Numbered from the stretch's first letter, positions 2,012 through 35,753 are shown. The stretch: DNA of 64,000 nucleotides from an uncultured Chloroflexia bacterium (GCA_963766675.1 CAVYBA010000003.1:3567-67566); one strand, 5' to 3'. The notes: generated by a model from the letters alone, not told the origin. Program-made: numbers and translations.

Positions 2012-2448
2012 CGACGGACCGCCGGGCCGAGCGCCTCGAGCGCCGCCGAGAACTGCTGCATGTGCCGCGTGAACGGCTCGGCGCAGACCGAGCAGATGGC
2101 CGCCATCCGCATCCGCCCCGGATCGACACCTCGCTCGCGGAGTTGTGCCTGGGCGACGCTGCTGATCTTCGACGACCGCTCCGCGCAATCGGACAGGTAG
2201 GCGCACTCGTCGCCATCCGACGCGATGAACACGCCGTCGAACCCGCCCTCGAGCGCGCGCACCACCCAGGACGGTCGAATGCCGCTGGTGCACGGCAGGC
2301 CGATGACGCGGACGCCCGGCGAGTAGTGCAGGTGCGAGCTGCCCGCGAGGTCGATCCCCGGATCGGAGATGTTGTGCGTCGAGAAGACCAGGATCCGGGG
2401 GACGAACCCGGATCCGGCCTCATGCGGCACGGCGGTGGCGGCGGTCAT
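2008..2448 (-). CDS. mvhD: MvhD/FlpD-like hydrogenase iron-sulfur (delta) subunit, variant Cys pattern
   Basis: RILVFS..., LPCTSGIRP.WV..AL..GFDGVF, ECAY, RMAAICSVCAE; coupled to hdrA. Confidence 0.8.
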   Translation of the reverse strand: MTAATAVPHEAGSGFVPRILVFSTHNISDPGIDLAGSSHLHYSPGVRVIGLPCTSGIRPSWVVRALEGGFDGVFIASDGDECAYLSDCAERSSKISSVAQAQLRERGVDPGRMRMAAICSVCAEPFTRHMQQFSAALEALGPAVRR

Positions 2449-2483
2449 CGCGTGGTGCTCCTGTGCCTGTCGGCGGGTTGGGC

Positions 2484-2744
2484 CTACTTGCCGCGTCGGA
2501 TGAGGACGCGGTCGTAGCCGTCGGCGCCGATTGCCCCGAGGAACTCGTGCCCGACCTTGCCGGACCAGGCGCTGATGTCGGTCTTGGTCACCGGGTCGGT
2601 CGACCAGACCTCGATGACGGACCCAACCGGGACGGTGCCCATCCCCTTCTTCGCTTCGAGCAGTGGTCCCGGGCAGGCCGCGCCGCGGGCGTCGACGATC
2701 TTGGCGGCAACGATGGTCTCGAGGTCGGTGAGCGTGGCGGTCAT
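2484..2744 (-). CDS. tusA: TusA/SirA family sulfurtransferase
   Basis: VDARGAACPGP (CPxP) motif, WSTDP, 86 aa. Confidence 0.92.
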   Translation of the reverse strand: MTATLTDLETIVAAKIVDARGAACPGPLLEAKKGMGTVPVGSVIEVWSTDPVTKTDISAWSGKVGHEFLGAIGADGYDRVLIRRGK

Positions 2745-2760
2745 GACGGATTCCTCCTGT

Positions 2761-3126
2761 TCAGTAGACGAGGCTGTTGGTCGCCGAGGTGATCTCGGCG
2801 ATGAACCGACCGGCGGCCACGACTTCCGCGCCGCCGATGAGCTGGTCGGGCGTGATCGCCCGCGGCTTCAGGCAGGGGCCACACACGAGCAGCCGGCCGC
2901 CGAGCGTCCCGAAGTCGTCGACGAGCTTCTGCAGCGGCGGAAAGCCCAATGCCTCGATGCCGTCGACGCCGCCGACCCGGCCGAGCTCGACGCCGTCGCC
3001 CTGGAGGCCGATCACGACCTCGACGTCCGATGCGAGCGCCGCGCAGGCCATGACGAACGGGATCGTGGCGTGTTCCGGCTCGTTGGGACCGTGCAGCACC
3101 ATGAACACGAGCTTCTCGCTGGCCAT
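2761..3126 (-). CDS. DsrE family sulfur relay protein
   Basis: Start reassigned to MASEKLV (ATG 3126); HGPNEPE.ATIPF, QGDGV, LLVCGPC. Confidence 0.85.
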   Translation of the reverse strand: MASEKLVFMVLHGPNEPEHATIPFVMACAALASDVEVVIGLQGDGVELGRVGGVDGIEALGFPPLQKLVDDFGTLGGRLLVCGPCLKPRAITPDQLIGGAEVVAAGRFIAEITSATNSLVY

Positions 3127-3145
3127 CGGACAGGTTCCTCTGCGG

Positions 3146-3553
3146 CTAGATGAAGAGGATCTGGCCGCCTTCGGCGGCCAGCAGGAAGGCGGCGATCCCG
3201 CTCGGACCGTCGACCAGCGGGTCGAGCCCGTCGACATCGAGCCCCAGCGTCTCGAGCGAACCGGAACAGGCCTGGATGCTGACCTCGCCGAGCTCCTTGG
3301 CCATCCGGAAGGTCTCGAGCCAGGGGATGGCGGCGGCGCCGTTGACCGGCTGGCTCGATCCCGCCGCTCTGGCGTCGCAGGCCAGGCCGTGGTCGGCGTC
3401 GATCCGGTCCGCCCGGAACGCGTCGAGTGCCCAGTACTGGAGCAGGACGTTGACCGGGCGGCCCATGGCCGCCGCCCCCGCGGCGACCGTCGCCGCCGAG
3501 TGGAGCTTGTCGGCGGTGCCGGAGAACAGGACGAGGGACAGGCTGTCGTTCAT
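3146..3553 (-). CDS. DsrE/DsrF/DrsH-like (DsrE2/E3-type) protein
   Basis: Start MNDSLSLVLFSGTADKL; AAAMG..V..L..YWAL, IQACSGSL, GIAAFL..A. Confidence 0.8.
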   Translation of the reverse strand: MNDSLSLVLFSGTADKLHSAATVAAGAAAMGRPVNVLLQYWALDAFRADRIDADHGLACDARAAGSSQPVNGAAAIPWLETFRMAKELGEVSIQACSGSLETLGLDVDGLDPLVDGPSGIAAFLLAAEGGQILFI

Positions 3554-3560
3554 TGGAGGG

Positions 3561-3950
3561 TCACCTGGGTTGCTGGCTGCGAGGGATGGCCGCTTCCAGC
3601 TGGCGCTGCCGGTCGTCGTCATGCGCAGCCGCCGCCAGGCTCCCGAGGGCCGACAGGCGACGAACGAGGACGCTCCGCATCAGGTCGCAGGCGGCCAGGA
3701 TCTGGGGATCGGTCAGCTCGTAGCGCACCATCCGCCCGTCCCGGGTCGCGGTGACAAGGCCGACGGCGCGCATGGCCGACAGATGCTGGGACACGGTTGC
3801 CTGTGGAACACCAAGCTCCGCCTCGAGATCGCGAACCTCGAGCGGACCACGGCCGAGCAGGTGGATGATCCGGAGACGGTGCACGCTGGCGAGGGTGCGC
3901 AGCAGCGTCGCCTGGATCACCTCGATCTCGTTCGTCGCGTTGAGCACCAC
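3561..3950 (-). CDS. ArsR/SmtB family transcriptional regulator
   Basis: LASVHRLRIIHLL, VSQHLSAMRAVGLV, RDGRMVRYEL; first gene of the cluster. Confidence 0.9.
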   Translation of the reverse strand: MVLNATNEIEVIQATLLRTLASVHRLRIIHLLGRGPLEVRDLEAELGVPQATVSQHLSAMRAVGLVTATRDGRMVRYELTDPQILAACDLMRSVLVRRLSALGSLAAAAHDDDRQRQLEAAIPRSQQPR

Positions 3951-21921: not shown

Positions 21922-22839
21922 TCAGACCGTGAATGCCGCCGCCAGGTAACCGACCGTCCGCTTGTCCGGCCCGCCGGCATCGGCCGACGTGGCGGCCACC
22001 ATCGCGCTGCCGCGGGTCGCCCCCATCGCCCGAAGCGCAGCCAGACCGAGGACGGCCGGCTGGATCCCGCACATGCCGCACAGCAGCCCACGCGTCCCGC
22101 CCTCCGTCAAGGCGCGCTCCCTGATCGCGAGTTCGAGCGGATCCACGCGCTCGATCGCCGGCGACAGCTCAGCCGTCGCACGCGCGCATTCGAGACTCGG
22201 CGGGTAGTGGGCCATATCGGAACTGATGGCGAGGACGATCGGCGCATTGGCCAGCCGCCGGGCCAGCAACTCGCCGAGACGCGTACCCGCCGCGATGGCT
22301 GGTTCTCCGGTCCCGGCGGCCACCGACAGGGGAACGATCGTCGGGCTCGACCGGCCCACCTGGAGGAATGGCAGCTGGACCTCGATCGAGTGCTCCCCGA
22401 CGTGCGCGGCACGGTCCACCTCGAACGGCGACCCGAGATCCACGATCGCGGCCGCGAGCTCGGCGTCGACCTCGAGGTCGCCGAGTGGCGTTCGCCACGC
22501 CCCGCTCTCCCATACCGCGACGTCATCCAGCCAGTCCGCGCGGTGGTTCGTGCCGAGGATGACGATGACCGGCGCTCGCGTGCCTGGCGCGGAGCAAGCG
22601 ACCAGGCGCCAGCCGGCGGCGGCCACGACCCCGGAATACATGAGCCCGGCGTGCGGGACCAGCAGCCCCACGACGGTTCCTTCGATCGGGGCCGCGGCCG
22701 GGGTCGTCCGATCGGCCTCGGCCACGAGTGTCTGGACCAACTCGGTAAGGATGCCCGGCTCGGCAGGGTAGAACGAGCCCGCGACGGACGGCCGACGAAT
22801 ACCGTCGCCAACTCGCCTGGACGCCAGCCAGCTCACCAT
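21922..22839 (-). CDS. amrB: AmmeMemoRadiSam system protein B (MEMO1 family)
   Basis: RRPSVAGSFYP, VPHAGLMYSG, GTNH, WRTPLG, EHSIEVQLPFLQ, SSDMAHY, MCG. Confidence 0.92.
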   Translation of the reverse strand: MVSWLASRRVGDGIRRPSVAGSFYPAEPGILTELVQTLVAEADRTTPAAAPIEGTVVGLLVPHAGLMYSGVVAAAGWRLVACSAPGTRAPVIVILGTNHRADWLDDVAVWESGAWRTPLGDLEVDAELAAAIVDLGSPFEVDRAAHVGEHSIEVQLPFLQVGRSSPTIVPLSVAAGTGEPAIAAGTRLGELLARRLANAPIVLAISSDMAHYPPSLECARATAELSPAIERVDPLELAIRERALTEGGTRGLLCGMCGIQPAVLGLAALRAMGATRGSAMVAATSADAGGPDKRTVGYLAAAFTV

Positions 22840-22849
22840 CAGCCCGGCC

Positions 22850-23935
22850 TCAGCCGCATGGCGTCGGGCGCCGCACCGAGCCCGACCCACGCCCGAGGGC
22901 GAGCCCGGCCAGGGCCCTGCCGCAGTCGGGGCAGGATCCCGCGGGTGTGAGGTGCGTCCGCACGCGGTACCCGTGGCGCTCGATGAGGAGCCGTCCGCAC
23001 CCCGCGCAAGCCGTGTCCTCCAGGCCGAGCTCCGGTGCGTTTCCGACGTAGACGTGGACCAGGCCGGCCTCACGGCCCAGGTCGGCGGCCCGGCGCAGCG
23101 TCGCCCGTGGCGTGGGCGGCACGTCGAGCATCCGGTGCATCGGGAAGAAGCGGCTGACGTGCCACGGCGTCTCCGGCCCGAGTGCCTCCACGATCCATCC
23201 GGTGAGCGCCCGGAGCTGCCCGTCATCGTCGTTCTGCCCGGGGATCACCAGCGTCGTCAGCTCGACCCAGATCCCGGCGCGGCGCATCCCGACGATCGTC
23301 TCCAGCACGGGCGCGAGGCGCGCGCCGCAGACCGTACGGTAGAACCTGTCGTCGAAGGCTTTCAGGTCGACGTTTGCGGCGTCGAGGACGGGCGCCAGCA
23401 GGCCCACGGCCTCGGGCGTCGCGTAGCCGTCGGTGATGAACAGGTTGCGCAGCCCTGCCTGGCGAGCGAGCCGGGCGGCGTCCAGCGCGTATTCGAGGAA
23501 AACCGTGGGCTCGACATAGGTGTACGCGATCGATTCGGCGCCGAGCATGGTCGCCTCGGCGACCACTCGCTCGGGCGGTAGCGGCCGCGCGGTGAGCTGG
23601 AGCCCGAGGCGCGGGCCCATCGCGATCTCCCAGTTCTGGCAGAACCGGCAATGGAACGGGCAACCGGCGGTCGCGATCGAGTACGCAGTCGAGCCCGGCG
23701 CGACATGGAAGAGCGGCTTCTTCTCGATCGGGTCGAAACAGCTGGCGACGACGGCGCCGTAGGCGAAGCTGACGAGCTGCCCGTCGCGGTTCTCGCGGAC
23801 GCCGCAGATCCCGACCCGACCCGGGCGGACCAGGCAGCGGTGGGCGCACACGCCGCACCGGACGCTCCCGTCGGCTTCCGGCGTGGCGAGAACGGTCGGC
23901 ACGGTCGTGGGTCCGTCGGGGATTCCAGTAGGCAT
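22850..23935 (-). CDS. amrS: AmmeMemoRadiSam system radical SAM enzyme
   Basis: CGVCAHRC, DPIEKKPLFH, CxxxCxxC (GCPFHCRFCQN), YTYVEP, SRFFP, HVYVGN. Confidence 0.93.
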   Translation of the reverse strand: MPTGIPDGPTTVPTVLATPEADGSVRCGVCAHRCLVRPGRVGICGVRENRDGQLVSFAYGAVVASCFDPIEKKPLFHVAPGSTAYSIATAGCPFHCRFCQNWEIAMGPRLGLQLTARPLPPERVVAEATMLGAESIAYTYVEPTVFLEYALDAARLARQAGLRNLFITDGYATPEAVGLLAPVLDAANVDLKAFDDRFYRTVCGARLAPVLETIVGMRRAGIWVELTTLVIPGQNDDDGQLRALTGWIVEALGPETPWHVSRFFPMHRMLDVPPTPRATLRRAADLGREAGLVHVYVGNAPELGLEDTACAGCGRLLIERHGYRVRTHLTPAGSCPDCGRALAGLALGRGSGSVRRPTPCG

Positions 23936-23980
23936 CGGTCGCTCGAGGCAGAGTCTCGTCCGGGGTCGCAAGGCCGGACA

Positions 23981-23994
23981 GTGCCGGGCGGCCC
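23981..23994. promoter_or_regulatory. Candidate operator GTGCCG-NN-CGGCCC between amrS and amrA
   Basis: One mismatch to GTGCCG-NN-CGGCAC, which recurs in other intergenic regions of this block. Confidence 0.3.
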
Positions 23995-24090
23995 CTCAAT
24001 TCAGGTGATCTCGCCCTGTTCGACTCGGATCCGGACTTCCAGCATTTCGATGGGTCGGTGTGACGTCACGCCCCAAGGGAGACGGATCCC

Positions 24091-24717
24091 ATGCGACACC
24101 TCCCAACGATCGCCGGCGAGCGCGCGCTCTCAGGTGCGGCGTCGGCGCCCACCGTCGATTCGGAGGCCCGTGGAGCCCTGCTCGACCTCGCGCGGATCGC
24201 GCTCGTGGTCGCGACCGGCGGCGCCGAGCCGGCGGACCTTCAGCCGGCGCTGGACCTGATCCCCGGTGAGCTCGAGCCTGCCGTGGTGTTCGTCACCCTG
24301 ACCGAGGACGGCGCGCTGCGCGGCTGCATGGGCACGTTCGAGCCGGTGCGCAAGCTCGGCGAGGCCGTCGTGACCTCGACGATCACGGCCGCACTCGACG
24401 ATCCGCGCTTCCTGCCGGTCGCGGCCAGCGAGCTGCCCGCGATCCATGTCGAGATCTCGATCCTCGGCTCACGGGTCCCAGTCGCCGACCCCCAAGCGTT
24501 CCGGCCGGGTCTCGATGGCGTGCTCGTCGAACGTAATGGGCGACGGGGCCTGCTGCTGCCCGAAGTCGCGCTGACGTTCGCCTGGGGAGGGCCGCAGATG
24601 TTCGACGCCGTCTGCGAGAAGGCCGGCCTGCGTCGAGACGCCTGGCGCCACCCGGACTCGCAGCTGTGGACCTTCAGGACGGTGCGATTCGGCGGGTCGG
24701 CCGTCGGCCCAGGCTAG
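24091..24717 (+). CDS. amrA: AmmeMemoRadiSam system protein A (AMMECR1 family)
   Basis: VFVTL...LRGCMG, AALDDPRF, EISIL, DGV, LLLPEVA, VCEKAG. Confidence 0.92.
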   Translation: MRHLPTIAGERALSGAASAPTVDSEARGALLDLARIALVVATGGAEPADLQPALDLIPGELEPAVVFVTLTEDGALRGCMGTFEPVRKLGEAVVTSTITAALDDPRFLPVAASELPAIHVEISILGSRVPVADPQAFRPGLDGVLVERNGRRGLLLPEVALTFAWGGPQMFDAVCEKAGLRRDAWRHPDSQLWTFRTVRFGGSAVGPG

Positions 24718-24847: not shown

Positions 24848-25609
24848 TCAGAACGGCGGTTGCTCGGTCGCCAGGAATGCGTTCCGGATGGTCGTGTAGC
24901 AGCCGCAGGTCATCGCCTCGAGGGCCGCGGGGTTGATGATGTGAAGGCTGCCGCGGCGGTGGACCAGGAACCCGGCCTGCTCCATTGCCTGGAGCGCGAG
25001 CGACACCTTTGGCCGGGTTCCGCCGAGCAGGCCGGCCAGCTGCTCGTGGGTGCACGGGAACTCGTCGCGCTCGATCCGGTCGCGACTCGTCAGGAGGCAC
25101 CTCGCCATCCGGGCCTCGAGCGGGTGCAGGCGATGGCAGGCGGACGTGGTCACGCAGTCCACGAAGCGGGCGCCCATGTACCGGAAGATCGCCGACCGGA
25201 ACGGCGGGCTGCTGTCGAGCAGTCCACGAAGGTCGTCCGTGGCCACCTGCGCGACGGCGCCGTCGATCAGGCAGGTGATCTCGGTTGGCGCCGGCACGGA
25301 GCCCAGCGCCGGCGCCAGCTCGATCGCGCCCTCCCGGCCTACCGTCGCGATCGACGTAAAGCTGCCCATCGGATCCGTGACCACCAGCGAGAACAGTCCC
25401 CCGAGCGGGAAGGTGACGCTGTCCATCGGCTCGCCCGGCAGGTACACGATCTGCCCACGGGTCGCGGCGTGCGTCGGGACCCGCGGGGCGACCTCGTCAA
25501 GGATCCCGCGCGGCAGGGCGGCGAGCAGCTTGTTCGCCCGGAGCGCCCCGGACTCCACGATCGTCGTCTCACGCCCTCCGCTGGTCCTGCCCGGCCGGCA
25601 GCTTGGCAT
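24848..25609 (-). CDS. Crp/Fnr family transcriptional regulator
   Basis: N.LLAALP, VGREG, H.LEARMARCLL, THEQLA.LLG.TRPKVS HTH. Confidence 0.9.
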   Translation of the reverse strand: MPSCRPGRTSGGRETTIVESGALRANKLLAALPRGILDEVAPRVPTHAATRGQIVYLPGEPMDSVTFPLGGLFSLVVTDPMGSFTSIATVGREGAIELAPALGSVPAPTEITCLIDGAVAQVATDDLRGLLDSSPPFRSAIFRYMGARFVDCVTTSACHRLHPLEARMARCLLTSRDRIERDEFPCTHEQLAGLLGGTRPKVSLALQAMEQAGFLVHRRGSLHIINPAALEAMTCGCYTTIRNAFLATEQPPF

Positions 25610-25620
25610 CGTCGGCGTTT

Positions 25621-25634
25621 GTTCCGCCCGGCAC
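25621..25634. promoter_or_regulatory. Candidate operator GTTCCG-CC-CGGCAC between crp and the dsrE-hdr operon
   Basis: One mismatch to GTGCCG-NN-CGGCAC; in the divergent promoter region. Confidence 0.4.
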
Positions 25635-25722: not shown

Positions 25723-26091
25723 ATGGCCGAGAGCAAGAAGTTCGTGATCATGGCGACGCACGGGCCCGACGACCCGGAGATGGCGACGCTGCCGTTCGTG
25801 ATGGCTGGTGCGGCCGCTGCCGCCGACGTGCAGGTGGTCATGGGGTTCCAGGGCGAAGGCGTGCGGCTGATGCAGTGCGGCGTCGCGGAAACCGTCACGT
25901 CGCCGGGGTTCAAGCCGATGGTCGAGCTCATCGCGACCATCCGCGAATTCGGCGGCACGTTCCTGGTCGGTGCCCCGTGCATCAAGAGCCGGGACATCAG
26001 CGAGGTCGACCTCGTCGAGGGCGCGCACGTCGTGACCGCCGGACGGTTCGTTGCCGAGATCGCGTCGGCGACGAACACCCTGTTCTACTAG
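25723..26091 (+). CDS. DsrE family sulfur relay protein, copy 2
   Basis: HGPDDPE.ATLPF, FQGEGV, LVGAPC; AGGAGG RBS; paralog of 2761-3126. Confidence 0.85.
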   Translation: MAESKKFVIMATHGPDDPEMATLPFVMAGAAAAADVQVVMGFQGEGVRLMQCGVAETVTSPGFKPMVELIATIREFGGTFLVGAPCIKSRDISEVDLVEGAHVVTAGRFVAEIASATNTLFY

Positions 26092-26102
26092 GAGATGCGG
26101 CA

Positions 26103-26369
26103 GTGACAACGGCGATGACCGAAACGGAGCTCGCGGCGATCGGCAAGACGACCGTCGTGGACGCTCGCGGGGTGGCCTGCCCGGGGCCGATGATCGAGGC
26201 CAAGAAGGCCATGGGCGGCATCCCGGTGGGCGAGGTCATGGAGCTCTGGTCCGGTGACTCCCAGACCAAGGAGGACATGGGCTACTGGACCGAGATGGCC
26301 GGCCACACGTTCGTGGGCGTCATCCCCGCCCGTGGCTACGAGCGGCTGTTCATCCGGCGCGGCAAGTAG
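26103..26369 (+). CDS. tusA: TusA/SirA family sulfurtransferase, copy 2
   Basis: VDARGVACPGP; GGAG RBS before GTG 26103 (ATG 26115 also possible). Confidence 0.9.
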   Translation: MTTAMTETELAAIGKTTVVDARGVACPGPMIEAKKAMGGIPVGEVMELWSGDSQTKEDMGYWTEMAGHTFVGVIPARGYERLFIRRGK

Positions 26370-26389
26370 CGGATCGGGCGAGGACCTCG

Positions 26390-26794
26390 ATGCCGACGGC
26401 ATCCGAGCCAAGGGTGCTGGTGTTCTCGACGAATTCGATCTCCGATCCCGGGATCGACCTCGCGGGCAGCCTGCACATGCACTACTCGCCCGAGGTCCTC
26501 GTGACCAGCCTTCCCTGCACGAGCGCGATCAGGCCGGACTGGATCCTGTTCGCGCTCCAGCAGGGGTTCGACGGCGTCTTCATCGCCTCCGACGGGGACG
26601 AGTGCGCCTACCTTCCGGACTGCTCGCGACGATCGGCCCAGCTGATGCTGCACGCGCAGGATTTGCTCGCGGAACACGGGATCGACGATCGCCGACTGAA
26701 GATGGCGGCCATCTGCTCGGTCTGCGCGGAGTCGTTCACGAGGCAGATCCGGGAATTCACGGAGACCCTCGTGTCCCTGCGGGCGGCCGCGTGA
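26390..26794 (+). CDS. mvhD: MvhD/FlpD-like iron-sulfur subunit, copy 2
   Basis: LPCTSAIRP, GFDGVFIASDGDECAYLPDC, MAAICSVCAE. Confidence 0.8.
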   Translation: MPTASEPRVLVFSTNSISDPGIDLAGSLHMHYSPEVLVTSLPCTSAIRPDWILFALQQGFDGVFIASDGDECAYLPDCSRRSAQLMLHAQDLLAEHGIDDRRLKMAAICSVCAESFTRQIREFTETLVSLRAAA

Positions 26795-29538
26795 AGGACT
26801 ACGACGCCCTCGTGATCGGCAGCGGCATCGGCGGCATGGAATTGGCGATCAAGCTCGGCGACATGGGCTATCGGGTCCTCGTCGTGGAGAAGGAGCCGAG
26901 CATCGGCGGGCGAATGGTCCTGCTGAGCAAGGTCTTCCCGACGCTCGACTGCGCAAGCTGCATCGCCACGCCCAAGATGGCGGCCACGGCCCACCACCCG
27001 AACGTGACCGTCATGACCGACTCGGAGGTGACCGGCATCACGCGCGACGGCGGTGGCGGCTTCCACCTTCACGTCCATCGCCGGCCGCGCTTCGTCGACC
27101 TCGCCGCCTGCACCGGCTGCCGGAAATGCGAGCAGGCGTGCACGGTCGCCGTCCCCGATGAGTGGAACGGCGGAATGGTGTCCCGGCGCGCGGCCTACAT
27201 CGCCTATCCGCAGGCGATCCCCCAGAAAGCCCTGATCGAGCACCCGGGCGCGTCTCCGTGCACCGACGCCTGCCCGGCCGGGATCAAGGCCCACGGCTAC
27301 GTCTCGCTCGTCCGGAGCGGTCGCTACGAGGAGGCGTTTCGGCTCGTGCTCGACGCAACGCCGCTGGTCGAGACCCTCGGCCGCGCGTGCTACGCGCCGT
27401 GCGAGACCGCCTGCACCCGGGGCGAGCTCGAGGAGCCTGTCGCGATCCGCCGCCTCAAGCGCTTCGTCGCCGAGCGCCACGTCGCCGACGGCGACGGGAT
27501 GCAGATCGAATGTGCGTCCCCGAACGGCAGGCGGGTCGCGATCGTGGGCTCCGGCCCGGCAGGATTGACCGCCGCCTGGCATCTCCAGCGCGCCGGCTAT
27601 GCCGTTCGAATCCACGAGGCGGCCGACCAGCCCGGCGGCTTCCTCCGCCAGGCGATCCCGGGCTACCGACTGCCTGCCGAAGTGGTCGAACGGGATGTCG
27701 CGCGGGTCCGCGCGATCGGCGTCGAGATCATGACCGGTGCCTCTGTGACTGATCTGGAAACCCTCCGGGCCGATGGATTCGACGCCGTCCTGGTGGCGAG
27801 CGGCACACCCGAATCGCGGCCACTTGGCGTCCCAGGCGAGACGCTCCGGGGCGTCCGCTCCGGGGTGGATCTCCTGCGCGAGGTTCGGACGGGAACGTCA
27901 CCGGATCTGACCGGGCGGCGGGTCGTGGTGGTCGGCGCCGGGAACGTGGCCATGGACGCCGCACGCACGGCCCTGCGGCTGGGCGCGCTCGAGGTGACGG
28001 TCGCCTACCGACGTGGCCGGGACGAGATGCCGGCGCATCGCGCGGAGGTGGAGGACGCGCTCGCCGAGGGCGTCCGGTTCGAGTTCCACGTCGCGCCGCT
28101 CGAGGTCGTCGGGGACGGGCAGGGATGGGTGACGGGCCTGCTCTGCGAACGGACGGTGCCGGGTGCGCCCGACGCGTCGGGACGCCGCCGGCCCGAACCG
28201 GTGCCGGACAGCGGGTTCGATCTGGGTTGCGACGTCGTCGTCGTCGCGGTCGGCCTGGCGCCGGCGCTCGGCGCGCTTGCCGGTCCGCTTGGCGCGGCAC
28301 CCGACGGGCGCGCGGTGGTCGCCTCGCAGACCCTCCAGAGCCCCGTTCCGTGGCTGTTCGCCGCAGGCGACGTCGTCACCGGCCCGAGCGACATCGCGCA
28401 CGCGGTCGGTAACGGACGGCGCGCGGCGTCCGCCATTGATCACTGGCTACGCGGCGAGGAGCTAGACCCAACGGCCCGCCGTGACGACAGCGCCCGCGTG
28501 GTGGACCGGACCGACGTCATCGCCCGGCAGCGCTCATACGCCAACCGTCCGTCACGCCTCGCCCCGCCGGTGCTTTCCCCTGCCCCACGCGCGTTCTCGG
28601 AGGTCGAGCCGCCGATCACCGAGGCGCAGGCACGAGAGGCTGCGGGACGCTGCCTCGACTGCGGCGTGTGCTCCGAGTGCGGCGAGTGCGTCGCGGTCTG
28701 CCCCGCCGACGCGATCGATCTCGACCAGCGCGGCGAGGACCTGTCGCTCCACGTCGGCGGTGTCGTTGTCGCGACCGGTTACCGGCTGTTCGCGGCGGAC
28801 CTCAAGCCGCAGTACGGCTATGGCCGCTACCCGAACGTCATCACCGGCATGCAGATGGAGCGCCTCCTGTCGCCGACACGTCCGTACACCAGCCTGCTGC
28901 GCCCGAGCGACGGCACCATGCCGAAGCGGATCGCCTATGTCATGTGCACCGGCTCCCGCGACGAGAGCGTCGGCAACCCGCTGTGCTCGAAGTTCTGTTG
29001 CATGTACTCGCTCAAGCAGAACCAGCTGATCATGGGCGTGCTCCGGTTCGCCGAGGTGACCGTCCACTACATCGACATCCGGGCCGTCGGCAAGGGCTAC
29101 GACGAGTTCTACGAGCAGGCCAAGGTCATGGGCGCCCGCTTCGTGAAGGGCCGGGTGGCGAGCGTCCGCGAGACCTCGGGCGGCGGTCTCGTCCTGCGCT
29201 ACGAGGACATCGACAACGGCGGCCACGTCGCGGAGGCCGAGTACGACCTCGTCGTGCTCGCGGTCGGCGTGCAGCCGAACCCCGACGTGACGCGCCTGTT
29301 CGAGGGCGGTGCGATCGCGCTCGACGACTGGGCCTACGTCGACGAGGTCGACGAGGACTTCAGCCCGGCCGCGACCAGCATCCCGGGCGTCTTCGTCGCC
29401 GGCGCCGTCTCGGGACCCCGTGACATCCCGGAGTCGATCCTCCATGCCGGGGCGGCCGCGGTCCAGGTCGCGGCCCATCTCGAGTCGTCGGCTCGTGAGC
29501 ATCGCGAGGCCGCAGCAGAGGCCGAGGTGCCCGCATGA
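26791..29538 (+). CDS. hdrA: HdrA-like flavoprotein with inserted GltD/NfnB-type NAD(P)H module (HdrL type), copy 2
   Basis: GTG 26791 overlaps the mvhD stop; VIGSGIGG, FPTLDCASC, ferredoxin, Fer4_20-like CPAG..GRAC..PCE.AC, two further Rossmann motifs, YRRG, then HdrA C-half (YGRYPNVITGMQMER, CTGSRD, CSKFCC, IDIRA.GKGYDEFY). Confidence 0.93.
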   Translation: MKDYDALVIGSGIGGMELAIKLGDMGYRVLVVEKEPSIGGRMVLLSKVFPTLDCASCIATPKMAATAHHPNVTVMTDSEVTGITRDGGGGFHLHVHRRPRFVDLAACTGCRKCEQACTVAVPDEWNGGMVSRRAAYIAYPQAIPQKALIEHPGASPCTDACPAGIKAHGYVSLVRSGRYEEAFRLVLDATPLVETLGRACYAPCETACTRGELEEPVAIRRLKRFVAERHVADGDGMQIECASPNGRRVAIVGSGPAGLTAAWHLQRAGYAVRIHEAADQPGGFLRQAIPGYRLPAEVVERDVARVRAIGVEIMTGASVTDLETLRADGFDAVLVASGTPESRPLGVPGETLRGVRSGVDLLREVRTGTSPDLTGRRVVVVGAGNVAMDAARTALRLGALEVTVAYRRGRDEMPAHRAEVEDALAEGVRFEFHVAPLEVVGDGQGWVTGLLCERTVPGAPDASGRRRPEPVPDSGFDLGCDVVVVAVGLAPALGALAGPLGAAPDGRAVVASQTLQSPVPWLFAAGDVVTGPSDIAHAVGNGRRAASAIDHWLRGEELDPTARRDDSARVVDRTDVIARQRSYANRPSRLAPPVLSPAPRAFSEVEPPITEAQAREAAGRCLDCGVCSECGECVAVCPADAIDLDQRGEDLSLHVGGVVVATGYRLFAADLKPQYGYGRYPNVITGMQMERLLSPTRPYTSLLRPSDGTMPKRIAYVMCTGSRDESVGNPLCSKFCCMYSLKQNQLIMGVLRFAEVTVHYIDIRAVGKGYDEFYEQAKVMGARFVKGRVASVRETSGGGLVLRYEDIDNGGHVAEAEYDLVVLAVGVQPNPDVTRLFEGGAIALDDWAYVDEVDEDFSPAATSIPGVFVAGAVSGPRDIPESILHAGAAAVQVAAHLESSAREHREAAAEAEVPA

Positions 29539-31322
29539 CCGCCGCCGCAGGCCAGCAGCCGAACGGGGCCGCGGACCGCGTCGCCGGCGACTCCGCCCGC
29601 GACCCGGGACCGCTCGGCGGTGGACGCCTCGCCGTCTACGTTTGCCAGTGCGGCGGGAATATCGGCGACTACGTCGACACCGACCGGGTCATCGACGCCG
29701 TCAAGGATCTGCCCGGGGTGTGCGTCGCGCGGCATGCCATGTTCAGCTGCTCGGATACCAACCAGCAGGAGATCATCGACGACGTCGCGCGCGAACGGCT
29801 CGACGGCTTCGTCATGGCCTGCTGCTCGCCCAAGCTGCACCAGTTCACCTTCCGCGGAGTCGCCGGACGTGCCGGCGTGAACCCCTATCGGGTCACCCAG
29901 GTCAACATCCGCGAGCAGTGCTCGTGGACGCACACCAACGAGCCCGGCGCGGCAACGAGGAAGGCGGTCAAGCTCGTGAGCGCGGGCGTCGCGCGAGCGC
30001 GCCTGGCACAGCCGCTGGAACCGGTCGAGGTGCCGACCACCCCGCGCGTCGCCGTGATCGGCGGCGGGGTGGCGGGCATGCGCGCCGCGATCGGGCTCGC
30101 GGACGTCGGTTTCGAGGTCTGCCTGGTCGAACGCGAGGCCGAGCTGGGTGGTCAGGTCGGCCGGCTGGGCGAGCTGTTCCCGCGGCGAGTCAGCGGCCGG
30201 GCCCTCGTGGAGCGGATGCGTGCCGAGATCGCCCGCCGGCCCGGCATCTCGGTGCTGACGGGCGCGCGAGTCGTCGAGAAGGCCGGCACGTACGGCAACT
30301 ACACGATCACGATCCGCCGTGGCGACGAGACGAGCCAGGTGGACGTGGGCCAGATCGTGGTCTCGACCGGGTTCGAACCGTACGAGCCGGGGGCAGGCGA
30401 GCTCGGCTACGGCAGCCCGCGCGTGATCACCCTGCCCCAGTTCCGGCGGCTGCTGGACGAAGGCGAAGGTCCGCTCGTCCACGACGGGAAGCCCGTTCGG
30501 ACGATCGCGTACATCTACTGCGTCGGCAGCCGGGGCGCCGATCGCGCCTACTGTTCGCGCTACTGCTGCAGCGCCGCAGTCCACGCCTCGCTGCTCATCG
30601 TCGCCCGGGACCCGGAGGTTCGCCAGTACCACCTCTACCGCGACCTGCGGACCTACGGTCGCAATGAGGCGATGTTCAGCGAGTCCCGCAAGCACGGTTC
30701 GGCCTACCTGCGCTTCGCCGACGACGACCCGCCGGAGGTGACGATCGACGGGGACGCGGTTCACGTGACCGTGCGCGACCTGCTGACGGCGGGCGAGGAG
30801 ATGACGGTCACGGCCGACCTGCTCGTGCTGGTGACCGGGATGGTTCCCCGCGAGAACGTTGAGCTGGTGGGCGTGCTCAAGCTCCCGGTCGGTCGCGACG
30901 GCTTCTTCAACGAGATCCACACCAAGCTGCGGCCGGTCGAGACCGTGGTCGATGGCGTCCTGATCGCCGGGGCCTGCCAGTCGCCCAAGACGTCCGCCGA
31001 GAGCGTCGGCTCAGGGCTGGCCGCGGCGGCCCAGGCGGCCGCCGTGCTCAAGCGGGGCGTGGCCTCGCTGCACCCCCAGGTGGCGATCGTCGACCCCGCG
31101 CGCTGCGACGGCTGCGGCGAGTGCGTGACGGCCTGCCCGTTCAACGCGATCGAGATCCGCGGCAACAACGGTTCCAGCGTGGCCAATGTCGTGGCGGCGG
31201 GCTGCAAGGGCTGCGGCGCGTGTGCACCCGTCTGTCCGACCGGCGCGATCGATCTCCAGGGCTACAGCGATGCCGAGATGCGCGCGACGATCGTCGGCCT
31301 CCTCACGGAGGTGGCCTCATGA
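29535..31322 (+). CDS. hdrA: Second HdrA-family subunit (N-terminal Fe-S domain, FAD domain, C-terminal 2x[4Fe-4S]; QmoB-like arrangement)
   Basis: VYVCQCGGNI, ACCSPKLH, NIREQCSW, VIGGGVAG, YCVGSR..YCSRYCC, CDGCGECV..CP, CKGCGACA..CP. Confidence 0.92.
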   Translation: MTAAAGQQPNGAADRVAGDSARDPGPLGGGRLAVYVCQCGGNIGDYVDTDRVIDAVKDLPGVCVARHAMFSCSDTNQQEIIDDVARERLDGFVMACCSPKLHQFTFRGVAGRAGVNPYRVTQVNIREQCSWTHTNEPGAATRKAVKLVSAGVARARLAQPLEPVEVPTTPRVAVIGGGVAGMRAAIGLADVGFEVCLVEREAELGGQVGRLGELFPRRVSGRALVERMRAEIARRPGISVLTGARVVEKAGTYGNYTITIRRGDETSQVDVGQIVVSTGFEPYEPGAGELGYGSPRVITLPQFRRLLDEGEGPLVHDGKPVRTIAYIYCVGSRGADRAYCSRYCCSAAVHASLLIVARDPEVRQYHLYRDLRTYGRNEAMFSESRKHGSAYLRFADDDPPEVTIDGDAVHVTVRDLLTAGEEMTVTADLLVLVTGMVPRENVELVGVLKLPVGRDGFFNEIHTKLRPVETVVDGVLIAGACQSPKTSAESVGSGLAAAAQAAAVLKRGVASLHPQVAIVDPARCDGCGECVTACPFNAIEIRGNNGSSVANVVAAGCKGCGACAPVCPTGAIDLQGYSDAEMRATIVGLLTEVAS

Positions 31323-31552
31323 GTCGTGAGATCCGCGAAGTGATCCGGGATGAGCCCTTGATGCGCGATCGCCTCCTCGCGCTGCTGGCCGGCGGTCCGC
31401 TGACGGTGTCCGAGCTGGCGACGGCCGCGGACCTGCCGGCGGAGGAGGTCATGGTCTGGATGATGGGTCTCCGCCGGTTCGGTCTTGTCGCCGAGGAGAA
31501 GGCGACCGCGCGTGCCACCGAGTACCGCTACGCCGCGGTGAGGCAGCCGTGA
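31319..31552 (+). CDS. Small winged-helix protein inside the hdr operon
   Basis: 77 aa, ATGA/GTGA overlaps on both sides; GPLTVSELA.AADL...EV..W.MGLRRFGLV. Confidence 0.7.
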   Translation: MSREIREVIRDEPLMRDRLLALLAGGPLTVSELATAADLPAEEVMVWMMGLRRFGLVAEEKATARATEYRYAAVRQP

Positions 31553-31848
31553 GCATCGCGATCAGCGACCGCCTGGAGCGAGAGCTGCGCGCGCTCGGGC
31601 CATTCGACGCGGCGGCGTGCATGAACTGCGGCTTCTGCAGCGCGGCCTGCCCGATGGACATCGACGTGCTGCCGCGGCGCGTGTTCCGCCACGTGCTGTT
31701 CGGCATGGACGGCGCGATCCGGGCCGAGAGCGAGGCCGTGTTCATGTGCCTCCTCTGCCGGGTCTGCGAGCAGAGCTGCCCGGCAGGAGTGCACATCACC
31801 GACAACATGCGCCTGCTGCGCGGCTGGCTGCTCCGGGAGGGATCGTGA
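31549..31848 (+). CDS. HdrC-like 2x[4Fe-4S] dicluster protein
   Basis: CMNCGFCSAACP and CLLCRVCEQSCP. Confidence 0.88.
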   Translation: MSIAISDRLERELRALGPFDAAACMNCGFCSAACPMDIDVLPRRVFRHVLFGMDGAIRAESEAVFMCLLCRVCEQSCPAGVHITDNMRLLRGWLLREGS

Positions 31849-32864
31849 TGGCGCTGCCGACGCGTGAGGTCGTGGGCATTCTCGTCGACAACCTGCGGAT
31901 CCGGGGATCGGTGCTGCCGATCCCGGTCCGACAGGCAACGCGCTGGGCCCGGGAGCTCGACCTGCCGCGCGGTGGCGAGACGGTCCTGTACACGGGACTC
32001 ATGTATCAGCTCATCCCGTACATCGAACGCCTCGTCGCCCTCGAGCAGCGTCTGGGCAACACCCCCCTCGCCCGCCTGGCCGGCATCGGCCGGCGGGTGA
32101 ACCGGCTGGTCAACGGCGTCGCGTTCGTTGCCCGGCCATCGGCCCGGGAGCGAGCCGAGTACGACCGCATCCCGGCCAACGTCGCGCGCCTCCTCCAGCG
32201 AGCGGGGGTCGAGTTCGGCTACCTGTACGAGGACGACCTGTACGCAGGCGCGCTGGCCTACGACCTTGGCGCGATCGAGGCGGTGACTGCCCACGCTCGG
32301 CGGGTGGCGGCGCGGCTTCGTGCGCGCGGCGTGCGCGAGGTCATCACGATCGATCCCCACACGACCAACATGCTGCGCAGCGTGTACCCGACCCTCCTCG
32401 AGGGCTACGACATCCGGGTGCGCAGCTACCTCGAGGTGCTCGCCGAGCGCGACCTGCCGTCCCTCGCCCCGAACGCCGGACGGGTCGTCGTCCACGACCC
32501 GTGCGTGTACGCACGCTACGAGCACGTGATCGAACCACCCCGCAAGCTGCTCGCCGCGGCCGGAATCCAGACCGTCGAGCCCGAGGACGGGCGCGAGCAG
32601 ACATGGTGCTGCGGCGGCCCGGCCGAGGCGCTGTTCCCGGACAAGGCCGCTGCAGTGGCAGCCTCGCGGGTCGCCCAGCTCCGTGGTGTCGCCGCCGAGT
32701 GCGTGACCATGTGTCCGATCTGCCTGGTCAACCTGCGCAAGTCGGCCGATGGCATGCGCTTCCGCGACATCTCGGACTACCTGGTCGAAGCGAGCGCGCG
32801 ACCTGTGGCCGCGAGCCCGACCATCACCACGCCGGAGCCCTCGCCGGCGCTCATCGGGAGGTGA
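31848..32864 (+). CDS. HdrD/HdrB-like CCG-domain (Fe-S)-binding protein
   Basis: ATG 31848 overlaps hdrC stop; HDPC, WCCGG, TMCPIC in the C-terminal CCG domain. Confidence 0.88.
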   Translation: MALPTREVVGILVDNLRIRGSVLPIPVRQATRWARELDLPRGGETVLYTGLMYQLIPYIERLVALEQRLGNTPLARLAGIGRRVNRLVNGVAFVARPSARERAEYDRIPANVARLLQRAGVEFGYLYEDDLYAGALAYDLGAIEAVTAHARRVAARLRARGVREVITIDPHTTNMLRSVYPTLLEGYDIRVRSYLEVLAERDLPSLAPNAGRVVVHDPCVYARYEHVIEPPRKLLAAAGIQTVEPEDGREQTWCCGGPAEALFPDKAAAVAASRVAQLRGVAAECVTMCPICLVNLRKSADGMRFRDISDYLVEASARPVAASPTITTPEPSPALIGR

Positions 32865-32867
32865 GCG

Positions 32868-33371
32868 ATGCATGCCCTGTCCGCCGTCTCGCATGAGCAC
32901 CACGTGCTCCTGCGCGACTACGTCAACCGGCTGTACGCCCTCGCCGACTGCCTGTGCTCGGACTGCCTCGATACCGTTGGGGCGCTGGCCGGCCTGGCCG
33001 CGCTGCGCGATCTCGAGGACGGCCTCCGGGAGATGTTGATCCCGCACATGGACGCGGTCGAGGCGGCCGTCTACCCGACCCTTGAACGGATCATGGACGA
33101 TCGCCAAACGAGCGTCCCGATGCGCGATGAGCACGAGGAGATTCGCAGGCTCGTCGCCAAGCTGGGTGAGATCGTCGATGCCGCCGACGGTCACCTCGAC
33201 CGGGGCAGCGTGCTGGCGCTGCGGCGGGTGATGCTCCGCCTGCACGTCCTTCTCCGGACGCACCTCGACGAAGAGGAGCTGTACCTGCCGATCCTCGAGG
33301 ACCGAATGTCCCCCGAGGGCGAGTCGGCCCTGGCCCGGGCCCTCGACCACGTGGCCACCGCTCGCCTATAG
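32868..33371 (+). CDS. Hemerythrin (HHE cation-binding) domain protein
   Basis: HEH..L, HMDAVE..VYP, EHEEI, HLDEEEELYLP. Confidence 0.82.
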   Translation: MHALSAVSHEHHVLLRDYVNRLYALADCLCSDCLDTVGALAGLAALRDLEDGLREMLIPHMDAVEAAVYPTLERIMDDRQTSVPMRDEHEEIRRLVAKLGEIVDAADGHLDRGSVLALRRVMLRLHVLLRTHLDEEELYLPILEDRMSPEGESALARALDHVATARL

Positions 33372-33557
33372 GAGGTCCCGGGTCCGGACCGTCGTCACGA
33401 ACAGCGGGCCGTTCGGCACCTGCGGAACGCCGTCGCCGCGAGGCAGTCTCTTGGCGTGGCCCGGCCGTCCGGCGCCGCACGCAGTCAAGAGGAGAGGTTC
33501 CGTGGTCGTACCTGGAGCGGCTGTGGCAGCCGTCGTGGTGAAGAAGTTGGTCGTGCG

Positions 33558-34379
33558 ATGACCGTCGTCGCCACGGTGTTCGAGGCCTCGTTCGACGGCT
33601 CAGAGGGCCGGGTCTTCTACCGGCGCTGGGATCCAGAAGGCCCTCCGACTCGGATCGTGCTGTTCGTCCATGGCTATGCGGAGCATGGGGGCAGGTACGG
33701 CCACGTCGCGATGGCGTTGACCCGGCGCGGGGCCGTCGTGTACGCCGACGATCATCTGGGTCATGGTCGTTCCGACGGCGAGCGGGCGCTGATCAGCGAC
33801 TTCGAGCACGTCGACGACGACCTGCATACGCTCGCCGGCATCGCCCGCGGCGAGCATCCGGGCCTGCCACTGGTCCTGGTCGGACACTCGATGGGAGGTC
33901 TGCTCGCGGCACGCTATGCCCAGCGCTGGCCTGACGAGGTGGCAGGTGTCGCGTTCTGTGGGGCGGTCATCGGCGACTGGCAATGGGCCCGCGAGGTGCT
34001 GCGACGGCCCGATCTCCCGTACGTTCCCTTCGACCCGGAGGCGATCTCCCGGGATCCGCGGGTGGGCGCGTCCTATGCCGCAGACCCACTCGTCTACCAC
34101 GGCCAGTACAGGCGCAGGCTGCTCGAAGCCGAGGTGGCAGCCCTCGACCGCTTCCATCAGGACAACGGTCGTCTGACCATGCCCGTGCTGTTCCTCCACG
34201 GAACCGCTGACCCGTGCGTGCCGTACGAGCGGTCCCTCCAGGCGGTCCGTGACATGCCGACCGACGACCTGACCGTCCACGTGTACCCGGGCGCTCGACA
34301 CGAGGTCCTGAACGAGACCAACCGCGACGAGGTGATCGGGCACCTCTCCGCGTGGATCGACCGAATCTCGTCAACCTGA
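33558..34379 (+). CDS. Alpha/beta hydrolase, lysophospholipase (S33) family
   Basis: VHGYAEHGGRY, DHLGHGRS.G, GHSMGG, HGTAD, YPGARHE. Confidence 0.92.
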   Translation: MTVVATVFEASFDGSEGRVFYRRWDPEGPPTRIVLFVHGYAEHGGRYGHVAMALTRRGAVVYADDHLGHGRSDGERALISDFEHVDDDLHTLAGIARGEHPGLPLVLVGHSMGGLLAARYAQRWPDEVAGVAFCGAVIGDWQWAREVLRRPDLPYVPFDPEAISRDPRVGASYAADPLVYHGQYRRRLLEAEVAALDRFHQDNGRLTMPVLFLHGTADPCVPYERSLQAVRDMPTDDLTVHVYPGARHEVLNETNRDEVIGHLSAWIDRISST

Positions 34380-35739: not shown

Positions 35740-35753
35740 GTGCCGAACGGCAC
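35740..35753. promoter_or_regulatory. Perfect 6-2-6 inverted repeat GTGCCG-AA-CGGCAC; weaker copy at 35819-35832
   Basis: In the padR/nifX-like divergent region. Confidence 0.45.

Follow-up and report, generated by a model that had tools for sequence, protein, structure and literature searches.

A nine-gene operon that encodes iron-sulfur flavoproteins together with the sulfur carriers DsrE and TusA was found at positions 25723-33371 of a 64,000-nucleotide (nt) stretch of DNA from an uncultured Chloroflexia bacterium (GCA_963766675.1 CAVYBA010000003.1:3567-67566). This whole stretch is referred to as the window, and positions are those of the window unless another contig is named. The operon is a previously undescribed variant of the heterodisulfide reductase (Hdr)/Qmo kind that is widespread, uncharacterised, and amenable to experiment. 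A first-pass annotation of the window had known of no characterised example, and none was found in the searchable literature; the full-text literature searched, whose coverage left out one review of HdrA diversity (Appel et al. 2021), contained no description of the operon as a unit.

The gene set was read by frame-by-frame translation and by Pfam and NCBIfam family searches. Because the G+C content of the window is approximately 70%, many spurious open reading frames (ORFs) are present, but positions 25723-33371 hold one coherent set on the + strand, with nine intact ORFs that have both start and stop codons. In gene order these encode a DsrE-family sulfur carrier (25723-26091, 122 amino acids (aa); PF02635, 1e-13), a TusA sulfur carrier (26115-26369, 84 aa; PF01206, 4e-15), an MvhD/FlpD-like [2Fe-2S] subunit (26390-26794, 134 aa; PF02662, 4e-26, and NCBIfam VhuD, 8e-14), HdrL (26791-29538, 915 aa), which is an HdrA flavin domain with a nested NfnB/GltD module (Fer4_20 and Pyr_redox_2), a second HdrA termed HdrA' (29535-31322, 595 aa) with an N-terminal cluster domain and a C-terminal 2x[4Fe-4S] ferredoxin domain, a Cys-free winged helix-turn-helix (wHTH) protein with weak Pfam TrmB/HTH matches (31319-31552, 77 aa), an HdrC-like 2x[4Fe-4S] subunit (31549-31848, 99 aa; TIGR03290 HdrC, 2e-12, qmoC, 3e-8, and Fer4_17, 3e-11), an HdrB-like CCG subunit (31848-32864, 338 aa; PF02754, 1.5e-12), and a hemerythrin-domain protein (32868-33371, 167 aa; PF01814, 1.6e-12). 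The successive junctions measure +23, +20, -4, -4, -4, -4, -1, and +3 nt, and 7 nt upstream of the dsrE ATG there is an AGGAGG. In the closest metagenome contig (L081, HdrL 80% identical), independent gene calls gave the same nine genes with near-identical lengths. The nine genes are one real operon, as the first-pass annotation had read them from their tight coupling, and its domain reading of every gene agreed with the Pfam and NCBIfam results. None of the nine proteins reached the cut-off of any NCBIfam equivalog model. A promoter and terminator scan of the operon found neither, although such a scan is uninformative at 70% G+C.

The first-pass annotation had proposed a survey of the operon across genomes. 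In a scan using one genome per species, 493 genomes encoded an HdrL relative, and the best 80 loci from these genomes were compared. The order TusA-MvhD-HdrL-HdrA'-wHTH-HdrC was kept in every sufficiently complete locus among these 80, in genomes of at least 5 phyla (Chloroflexota, Actinomycetota, Dormibacterota, Gemmatimonadota, and Bacillota), and this conservation is far beyond chance. Where a locus was complete enough for its upstream genes to be seen, TusA was nearly always among them, and most loci had a DsrE-family gene; extra copies of DrsE_2 and TusA were common, as were ArsR-type regulators, which accompany many relatives and have BigR-like similarity. Two architectures were distinguished. 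Type A (39 loci, window included) ends with HdrC and the CCG protein, and the terminal subunit of type B (39 loci) joins an HdrC domain to a NarI-like membrane domain; one such membrane subunit (from locus L052) matches NCBIfam qmoC over its full length at 9e-58, which is below the cut-off. In the HdrL tree the two types form clean clades (Shimodaira-Hasegawa approximate likelihood ratio test value of 99), each with both Chloroflexota and Actinomycetota. Hundreds of species from soil, peat, and freshwater encode the module, and one isolate noted among the 80 loci, Propionicimonas sp. T2.31MG-18, is of type B.

Within the host phylum the distribution is uneven. In a sample of 401 genomes from this phylum, an HdrL-like gene was found in 50, with an identity of at least 58% in only ~17. 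The operon is not typical of the host genus: the CCG gene was found in 0 of 24 same-genus genomes and HdrL in only two of the 24, so that the operon is considered to be accessory and patchy. Nor do all HdrL clusters carry TusA. HdrL genes at ~40% identity in other Chloroflexota (L082-L085) lie in hdrC-hdrB-hdrL sets without TusA or DsrE, from which it follows that the sulfur-carrier link is specific to the HdrL subfamily of the window. The HdrL of these four loci is a full-length HdrA, including the N-terminal domain, with the same NfnB insert, and these HdrL form a distinct, also uncharacterised subfamily.

Based upon alignment to the solved HdrA (5ODC), HdrL and HdrA' are best described as a predicted complementary, asymmetric HdrA heterodimer. 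HdrL aa 3-150 align to HdrA 143-289 and aa 623-898 to HdrA 289-566; because this alignment spans HdrA 143-566, HdrL is without the N-terminal cluster domain and without the C-terminal ferredoxin domain. Its flavin domain is of the thioredoxin-reductase type, and C54 and C57 form the CxxC that holds the equivalent of HdrA Cys197. HdrA' aa 31-262 align to HdrA 5-236 and aa 264-592 to HdrA 314-652. It is without the inserted ferredoxin domain and reads FPRRVSGRA where HdrA reads FPTNDCSIC, the Cys197 CxxC being gone, and has exactly those domains that are missing from HdrL. Across 37 type-A and 39 type-B sequences the cluster Cys of both proteins are invariant or nearly so, including 23 Cys of HdrL, with C54 and C57 among those conserved in the 76 sequences. 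[quoted passage not shown]

The first-pass annotation had also placed an internal GltD/NfnB-type module in the first HdrA. HdrL aa ~109-645 indeed align to the NfnB-like parts of StnA, NfnA(Bfu), NfnB, and GltD (E ~1e-99 to 1e-46), with the best similarity to the NADPH-binding StnA/NfnA/NfnB modules (1e-99 to 1e-77), and this NAD(P)H module sits between the two halves of the HdrL inserted ferredoxin domain. An NfnB-like insertion in the inserted ferredoxin domain is known from other ANME HdrA (PMC9012536). The earlier reading of the second HdrA as lacking the central (inserted) ferredoxin domain likewise agrees with the 5ODC alignment. Its description of the two as a QmoA/QmoB-like pair was kept in part: two differing HdrA proteins are present, but they are better described as a complementary heterodimer of the ANME type (PMC9012536).

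Within the nested module, the second Rossmann motif reads GAGNVA in the window HdrL and GGGNVA in nearly all homologues. The YRR motif that had been noted earlier is present as AYRRGR at HdrL aa 405-410, and AYRRGR also occurs in the window clade and in type B, whereas a type-A clade of Actinomycetota and Dormibacterota has V(C/S)LE in its place. An acidic residue at this V(C/S)LE position is typical of NADH sites, and the natural exchange of the two motifs indicates that the position behaves as a coenzyme-specificity switch. The switch region corresponds to HdrL aa 372-420 (~27904-28050). From these motifs, HdrL of the window probably prefers NADPH.

The 99-aa HdrC-like protein has two CxxCxxCxxxCP motifs. 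In the CCG subunit, the PF02754 domain was found once (aa 213-297), and C219, C254, C255, C289, and C292 are invariant in 35 aligned homologues. The N-terminal half is highly conserved and Cys-free in 35/35 of these, with DPHTT standing where a normal first CCG motif has CPxC. Given one intact CCG motif, the subunit is predicted to bind one noncubane cluster only. An AlphaFold2 model of the subunit (predicted local distance difference test score (pLDDT) of 80, predicted template modelling score of 0.83) was compared to known structures by using Foldseek, which returned Mycobacterium smegmatis EtfD as the best match (query-normalised template modelling score (TMq) of 0.66), followed by LutA and methanogen HdrB (TMq ~0.5, probability 1.0). 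The modelled subunit has the two-lobed HdrB fold, although it is not a normal HdrB. A weak match to the NCBIfam DsrK model (9e-6) was also obtained, and the single-cluster CCG pattern is one that we take to be that of DsrK, which acts on a protein-borne sulfur substrate. A profile search at E<=1e-30 gave 202 CCG-protein clusters (50% identity); several of the listed matches start ~100-130 residues into a longer protein and are read as putative fusions to an N-terminal HdrC-like part.

Both carriers retain their active-site Cys. TusA has Cys22 in ACPGP (the CPGP motif), which is conserved in 99% of 79 homologues. DsrE, which matches the DsrE/DsrF-like structure PDB 3mc3 at 5e-8, has a single Cys86 in GAPC that is conserved in 87% of homologues. 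Most DsrE homologues have C-x-P-C at this site (aa 83-86, 25969-25980), and a few keep only its first Cys. In MvhD, Cys 43, 72, 78, 109, and 112 are essentially invariant, and the N-terminal region reads STNSIS where a typical MvhD has a CxWC-type motif.

The start and stop of the wHTH gene overlap both neighbouring genes, and in 77 loci it lies between the HdrA' and HdrC genes. The AlphaFold2 model (pLDDT 88) gave ArsR/SmtB and MarR winged helices as the best Foldseek folds; judged from size and predicted secondary structure, the protein would be a minimal winged helix without the ArsR/MarR dimerisation helices. It is probably a structural subunit, with a possible protein-binding role. Homology to a DsrD-like activator or a DsrC-like carrier was considered and rejected, given that there is no Pfam DsrD match, no Cys, and only generic ArsR/MarR folds. 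Hemerythrin is confined to the Chloroflexota clades, in type A as a gene after that of the CCG protein and in type B as a pair after the cluster; it is a lineage-specific accessory gene.

The host genome (3.22 Mb, 7 contigs, 87% complete) encodes a second cluster, of type B, part of which lies on the - strand at 1-3950 of the window (ArsR, DrsE_2, DsrE, TusA, MvhD, and the start of a second HdrL). By using tblastn and ORF prediction, this cluster was followed off the window into HdrA', wHTH, and a QmoC-like subunit (genome contig C3:1-7516), giving the full order ArsR-DrsE_2-DsrE-TusA-MvhD-HdrL-HdrA'-wHTH-QmoC-like-hemerythrin-hemerythrin. [quoted passage not shown] The carriers are therefore tied to the MvhD-HdrL-HdrA'-wHTH core and not specifically to the CCG site, and their retention strengthens the sulfur-carrier link.

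Elsewhere in the genome, C5:340995-346393 has the canonical genes hdrC, hdrB (with both CCG motifs), hdrA (716 aa, full length), and mvhD in this order and, after them, a gene that reads as MvhG-like (from its sequence alone), so that the host may also have a classical Hdr-hydrogenase type complex. At C2:388300-391011, a DrsE_2-TusA-DrsE_2 set adjoins a 416-aa flavoprotein resembling sulfide:quinone oxidoreductase (SQR; again read from sequence alone) and a multicopper-type protein, an arrangement that suggests the handling of reactive sulfur species. The genome encodes haem-copper oxidase subunit I, and no DsrC (PF04358), DsrA, AprA (above cut-off), or YeeE/YedE was found in it. The oxidase and the absence of DsrA, DsrC, and AprA indicate that the host does not reduce sulfate and probably lives as a facultative and not as a strict anaerobe. 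The first-pass annotation had suggested that similar neighbourhoods may exist in other anaerobes; such neighbourhoods are widespread, in soil and peat lineages, but the host, with its haem-copper oxidase, is not an evident anaerobe. Without DsrC, DsrA, and AprA in the genome, TusA and DsrE are the only obvious protein thiol substrates.

The closest published relatives of the operon are the HdrL/HdrABC loci that sulfate reducers carry (Desulfobacterium autotrophicum HRM2 locus VIII, PMC2702500; Syntrophobacter fumaroxidans Sfum_0819-0824, PMC5947623), together with the tandem HdrA and HdrA-NfnB genes in ANME. The definition of HdrL goes back to D. autotrophicum, where one locus has hdrL and hdrA in tandem together with hdrB and hdrC (PMC2702500), and the features of this fusion were found here, in that the HdrA flavin adenine dinucleotide (FAD) domain is split by the GltD/NfnB module and mvhD is adjacent with a 4-nt overlap. 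As in the sulfate-reducer loci, a glutamate-synthase/NfnB-type NAD(P)H module is fused to an HdrA, and next to this gene stand mvhD, a second hdrA, and hdrB/hdrC; each system has been proposed to link NAD(P)H to a protein disulfide. In the sulfate reducers, DsrC is the proposed substrate, and the loci include FdhB-like Fe-S genes, with neither TusA/DsrE nor a winged-helix subunit reported; the window operon, in contrast, has one CCG motif and a strictly domain-complementary HdrL/HdrA' pair in a genome without DsrC or DsrA. Among the tandem asymmetric HdrA pairs and the HdrA-NfnB fusions of ANME (HdrA5/6, 12/13, 9-11; PMC9012536), the ~500-aa NfnB-like insertion inside the inserted ferredoxin domain is shared with the window HdrL. 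In ANME, heterodimer and insertion were described in separate gene sets that are tied to FdhAB and to coenzyme M/coenzyme B metabolism, whereas a single bacterial operon in the window unites both features with sulfur carriers. A 'type III' HdrA of archaea that has a GltD insert has been catalogued as well (PMC12054007).

Like QmoABC, the operon combines two differing HdrA-like flavoproteins with MvhD-type and HdrC-type modules and with a terminal module that is either QmoC or a soluble HdrCB. QmoAB-HdrCB occurs in Gram-positive sulfate reducers. Unlike QmoABC, the window operon has no membrane QmoC (a QmoC-like gene is found in the paralogue) but the 99-aa soluble HdrC and the CCG protein; it also has no aprAB partner, no aprA above cut-off being found in the genome, with carriers in place of adenosine 5'-phosphosulfate reductase. 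Qmo is without the NADPH module, and MvhD is a separate protein in the window operon. The single intact CCG motif is shared with DsrK of DsrMK(JOP), as is the protein-borne sulfur substrate, which for the window is proposed; unlike DsrK, the operon has no DsrM membrane partner, the genome has no DsrC, and the Fe-S domain is a separate HdrC-like protein. Although an NfnB-like module is present, the operon has no NfnA-like gene such as would be found in NfnAB transhydrogenase, and unlike Flx-Hdr (FlxABCD-HdrABC) it has no Flx-type genes, the NAD(P)H site being inside HdrL.

The first-pass annotation had separated the operon from the sulfur-oxidising Hdr-like (sHdr) system and from methanogen Hdr, and gene order, domain split, and CCG motif count all agree with this separation. 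A TusA/DsrE relay is described for sHdr (PMC11094781), in which Hdr-like genes also occur with TusA and DsrE-family carriers, and ArsR-type regulators lie near the relatives of the window operon. Unlike sHdr, however, the operon has neither the hdrC1-hdrB1-hdrA-hyp-hdrC2-hdrB2 order nor a short one-cluster sHdrA, and has an NADPH module and MvhD. No GcvH/LbpA-like or lipoate-assembly gene was found in or beside the operon, LbpA being searched there only. With methanogen MvhADG-HdrABC and formate dehydrogenase (Fdh)-Hdr (5ODC, 7BKB; PMC13518236) the operon shares the HdrA flavin domain, cluster Cys, MvhD, HdrC, and the HdrB fold. It differs in having no hydrogenase or Fdh in the operon, no coenzyme M/coenzyme B, and HdrA domains split over two genes, such that a methanogen HdrA homodimer with two noncubane clusters in HdrB stands against a predicted heterodimer with one cluster.

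A gene for a Crp/Fnr-family regulator lies divergently upstream of dsrE on the - strand (24848-25609, 253 aa; PF13545 HTH_Crp_2, 8e-13, and PF00027 cNMP_binding, 9e-7). Its position is shared with the closest type-A loci (L001-L011 and L081), and the protein has 8 Cys without the classical Fnr N-terminal Cys pattern. The crp-dsrE spacer contains a near-palindrome (GTTCCGCCCGGCAC, 25621-25634) with one mismatch to GTGCCG-NN-CGGCAC that is a candidate operator. Near-perfect copies of GTGCCG-NN-CGGCAC are intergenic around the operon (25621-25634, 23981-23994, 33406-33419, and 35740-35753). As a regulon marker the motif was rejected: 24 were found window-wide where 16.1 were expected, and 4 of 100 shuffles reached 24, which was not considered significant. 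Just upstream of the Crp gene is a Memo/radical-SAM/AMMECR1 triad (the 'AmmeMemoRadiSam' system, 21922-24717), whose adjacency to the operon is not kept in most other loci. Downstream of the hemerythrin gene, an alpha/beta hydrolase gene (Hydrolase_4, 33456-34379) that is syntenic in L081 lies at a spacing of ~90-200 nt and may or may not be part of the transcription unit, and a Dps-type ferritin gene also lies downstream of the operon. In agreement with the first-pass annotation, no hydrogenase, Fdh, Apr/Dsr, lipoate-binding protein, or hdrC1B1-A-hyp-C2B2 (sHdr) gene order was found in the operon or its flanks.

The reading that we prefer, although tentatively and with somewhat less than even confidence, is that NADPH is coupled, perhaps together with ferredoxin, to the cleavage of an S-S bond on TusA and/or DsrE at the CCG cluster. 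It is close to the NAD(P)H:persulfide oxidoreductase of the first-pass annotation, which is plausible but unproven. MvhD, HdrL, HdrA', wHTH, HdrC, and the one-cluster HdrB-like subunit would form a soluble Hdr/Qmo-type Fe-S flavoprotein complex served by the carriers DsrE and TusA, in which HdrL would give the Cys197-type ligand, the inserted ferredoxin domain, and the nested NADP(H)-binding NfnB/GltD flavin module. Electrons would pass between NADPH and an S-S bond on TusA Cys22 and/or DsrE Cys86; candidates for this bond are a persulfide, a polysulfide, and a mixed disulfide or trisulfide of the carriers. The one noncubane [4Fe-4S] cluster in the CCG subunit would be the place of its cleavage, as DsrK acts on DsrC, with release of sulfide. 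In methanogen HdrA, electrons enter via MvhD and the C- and N-terminal domains and bifurcate at the FAD, with a high-potential exit from the flavin-domain cluster to HdrC and HdrB and a low-potential exit through the N-terminal cluster and the inserted ferredoxin domain to ferredoxin (PMC9012536, PMC13518236). By analogy, three legs may be mapped onto the operon, namely MvhD with the HdrA' termini, the inserted ferredoxin domain with NfnB leading to NADP(H), and HdrC with the CCG subunit, and from this homologous wiring we infer that the complex may bifurcate electrons. [quoted passage not shown]

The preferred reading is supported by the tight operon, by the conservation of the carrier active-site Cys (TusA 99%, DsrE 87%), and by the single-CCG subunit of HdrB/EtfD fold. 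S. fumaroxidans makes an HdrABC/HdrL-MvhD set only with sulfate, and reduction of the protein disulfide DsrC has been proposed as its role (PMC5947623). Several observations weigh in the opposite direction. Type B (39 of 82 loci, one of them in the host) has a QmoC-like quinone module for HdrC and the CCG protein and yet keeps TusA and DsrE; the carriers are thus independent of the CCG site in half of the family, which weakens the idea that the CCG subunit reduces a TusA persulfide. The window DsrE and its closest relatives are without the first Cys of C-x-P-C, the second being kept, and the preference for NADPH is read from YRR at the level of a motif. By analogy to methanogen HdrA, the NADPH module would lie on the low-potential branch, so that NADP(H) may be an acceptor or a confurcation partner and not a simple donor. 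The MvhD leg is without an assigned partner, and since NAD(P)H can reduce persulfides without bifurcation, the need for so large a complex is left unexplained.

An alternative that is unlikely, but that should be given some weight, is that the core is a carrier-independent electron hub linking NADP(H), ferredoxin, and a high-potential sink in the manner of Fix/EtfABCX or Qmo. The sink in type B would be quinone, reached via QmoC, and that in type A a disulfide or some other acceptor at the CCG subunit. TusA and DsrE would have an accessory role only, donating sulfur for the assembly or repair of clusters or sensing reactive sulfur. The terminal module does swap between the two types while the core is unchanged, the closest structural match of the CCG subunit is the mycobacterial EtfD, a quinone-linked electron-transfer flavoprotein oxidoreductase, and the canonical Hdr-Mvh set elsewhere in the genome means that ferredoxin-type metabolism is present. 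However, across phyla nearly all loci of sufficient completeness keep TusA inside the operon, and most keep a DsrE-family gene, often with at least two copies of each, which would be unusual for maturation factors, and cluster assembly does not need the carriers, given that the ~40%-identity HdrL clusters have HdrB and HdrC without TusA or DsrE. The reverse direction is improbable: sulfide or a carrier thiol would be oxidised to a carrier persulfide (~-270 mV), with the electrons split between NADP+ as the low-potential acceptor, via the inserted ferredoxin domain and NfnB, and, on the high-potential side, a disulfide for type A and menaquinone for type B, thereby yielding NADPH from sulfide or detoxifying it. 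The place of the NfnB module on the low-potential exit branch of HdrA, the quinone-linked paralogue, and the capacity of the host to respire aerobically are consistent with this, and the DrsE_2-TusA-DrsE_2 set beside the SQR-like flavoprotein, as read from sequence, would mean reactive-sulfur handling. This oxidative direction is argued on thermodynamic reasoning, though, and no recognisable sulfide-oxidising active site is present; type A would need a sulfur species as both substrate and high-potential acceptor, and the operon and flanks have no sHdr-like sulfite-forming or lipoate machinery.

GltD/NfnB-type enzymes show NADPH:polysulfide activity, the sulfide dehydrogenase of Pyrococcus furiosus being NfnI, and this activity makes it conceivable, if doubtful, that the substrate is a low-molecular-weight disulfide or polysulfide (an organic polysulfide, a coenzyme A-type or thiol-cofactor persulfide, or thiosulfate-derived sulfur) and that TusA and DsrE only collect or deliver sulfane sulfur before or after the redox step. 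The number of carriers differs between lineages, as would be expected of a relay and not of a fixed substrate. One noncubane cluster instead of two nevertheless argues against a free heterodisulfide held as in HdrB, and neither a YeeE/YedE-type sulfur transporter in the genome nor a rhodanese in the operon was found. With a similarly small likelihood, the family could represent an undescribed bifurcating or confurcating class, in which carrier-bound sulfane sulfur is one leg and NADP(H), not ferredoxin, is the low-potential leg. The NfnB module would be wired head-to-head with the HdrA flavin, and the soluble CCG form and the membrane QmoC form, both encoded in the host, would join NADPH, the quinone pool, and carrier persulfides in a sulfur-mediated redox loop of facultatively anaerobic soil bacteria.

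Hdr-type complexes are the model for flavin-based electron bifurcation, and we know of no established 'heterodisulfide' for bacterial Hdr outside methanogens and sulfate reducers. The operon family gives a concrete candidate for such a substrate, namely sulfur on the co-encoded TusA and DsrE, as well as a defined site for pyridine nucleotides, in which NADPH and NADH motifs switch naturally, and informative natural variants in the one-cluster HdrB form, the QmoC form, and the asymmetric HdrA heterodimer. Solving the reaction would test whether protein persulfides serve as bifurcation substrates, would clarify the role of Qmo-like modules outside sulfate reduction, and would explain a common, unannotated sulfur and redox metabolism of abundant uncultured soil lineages.

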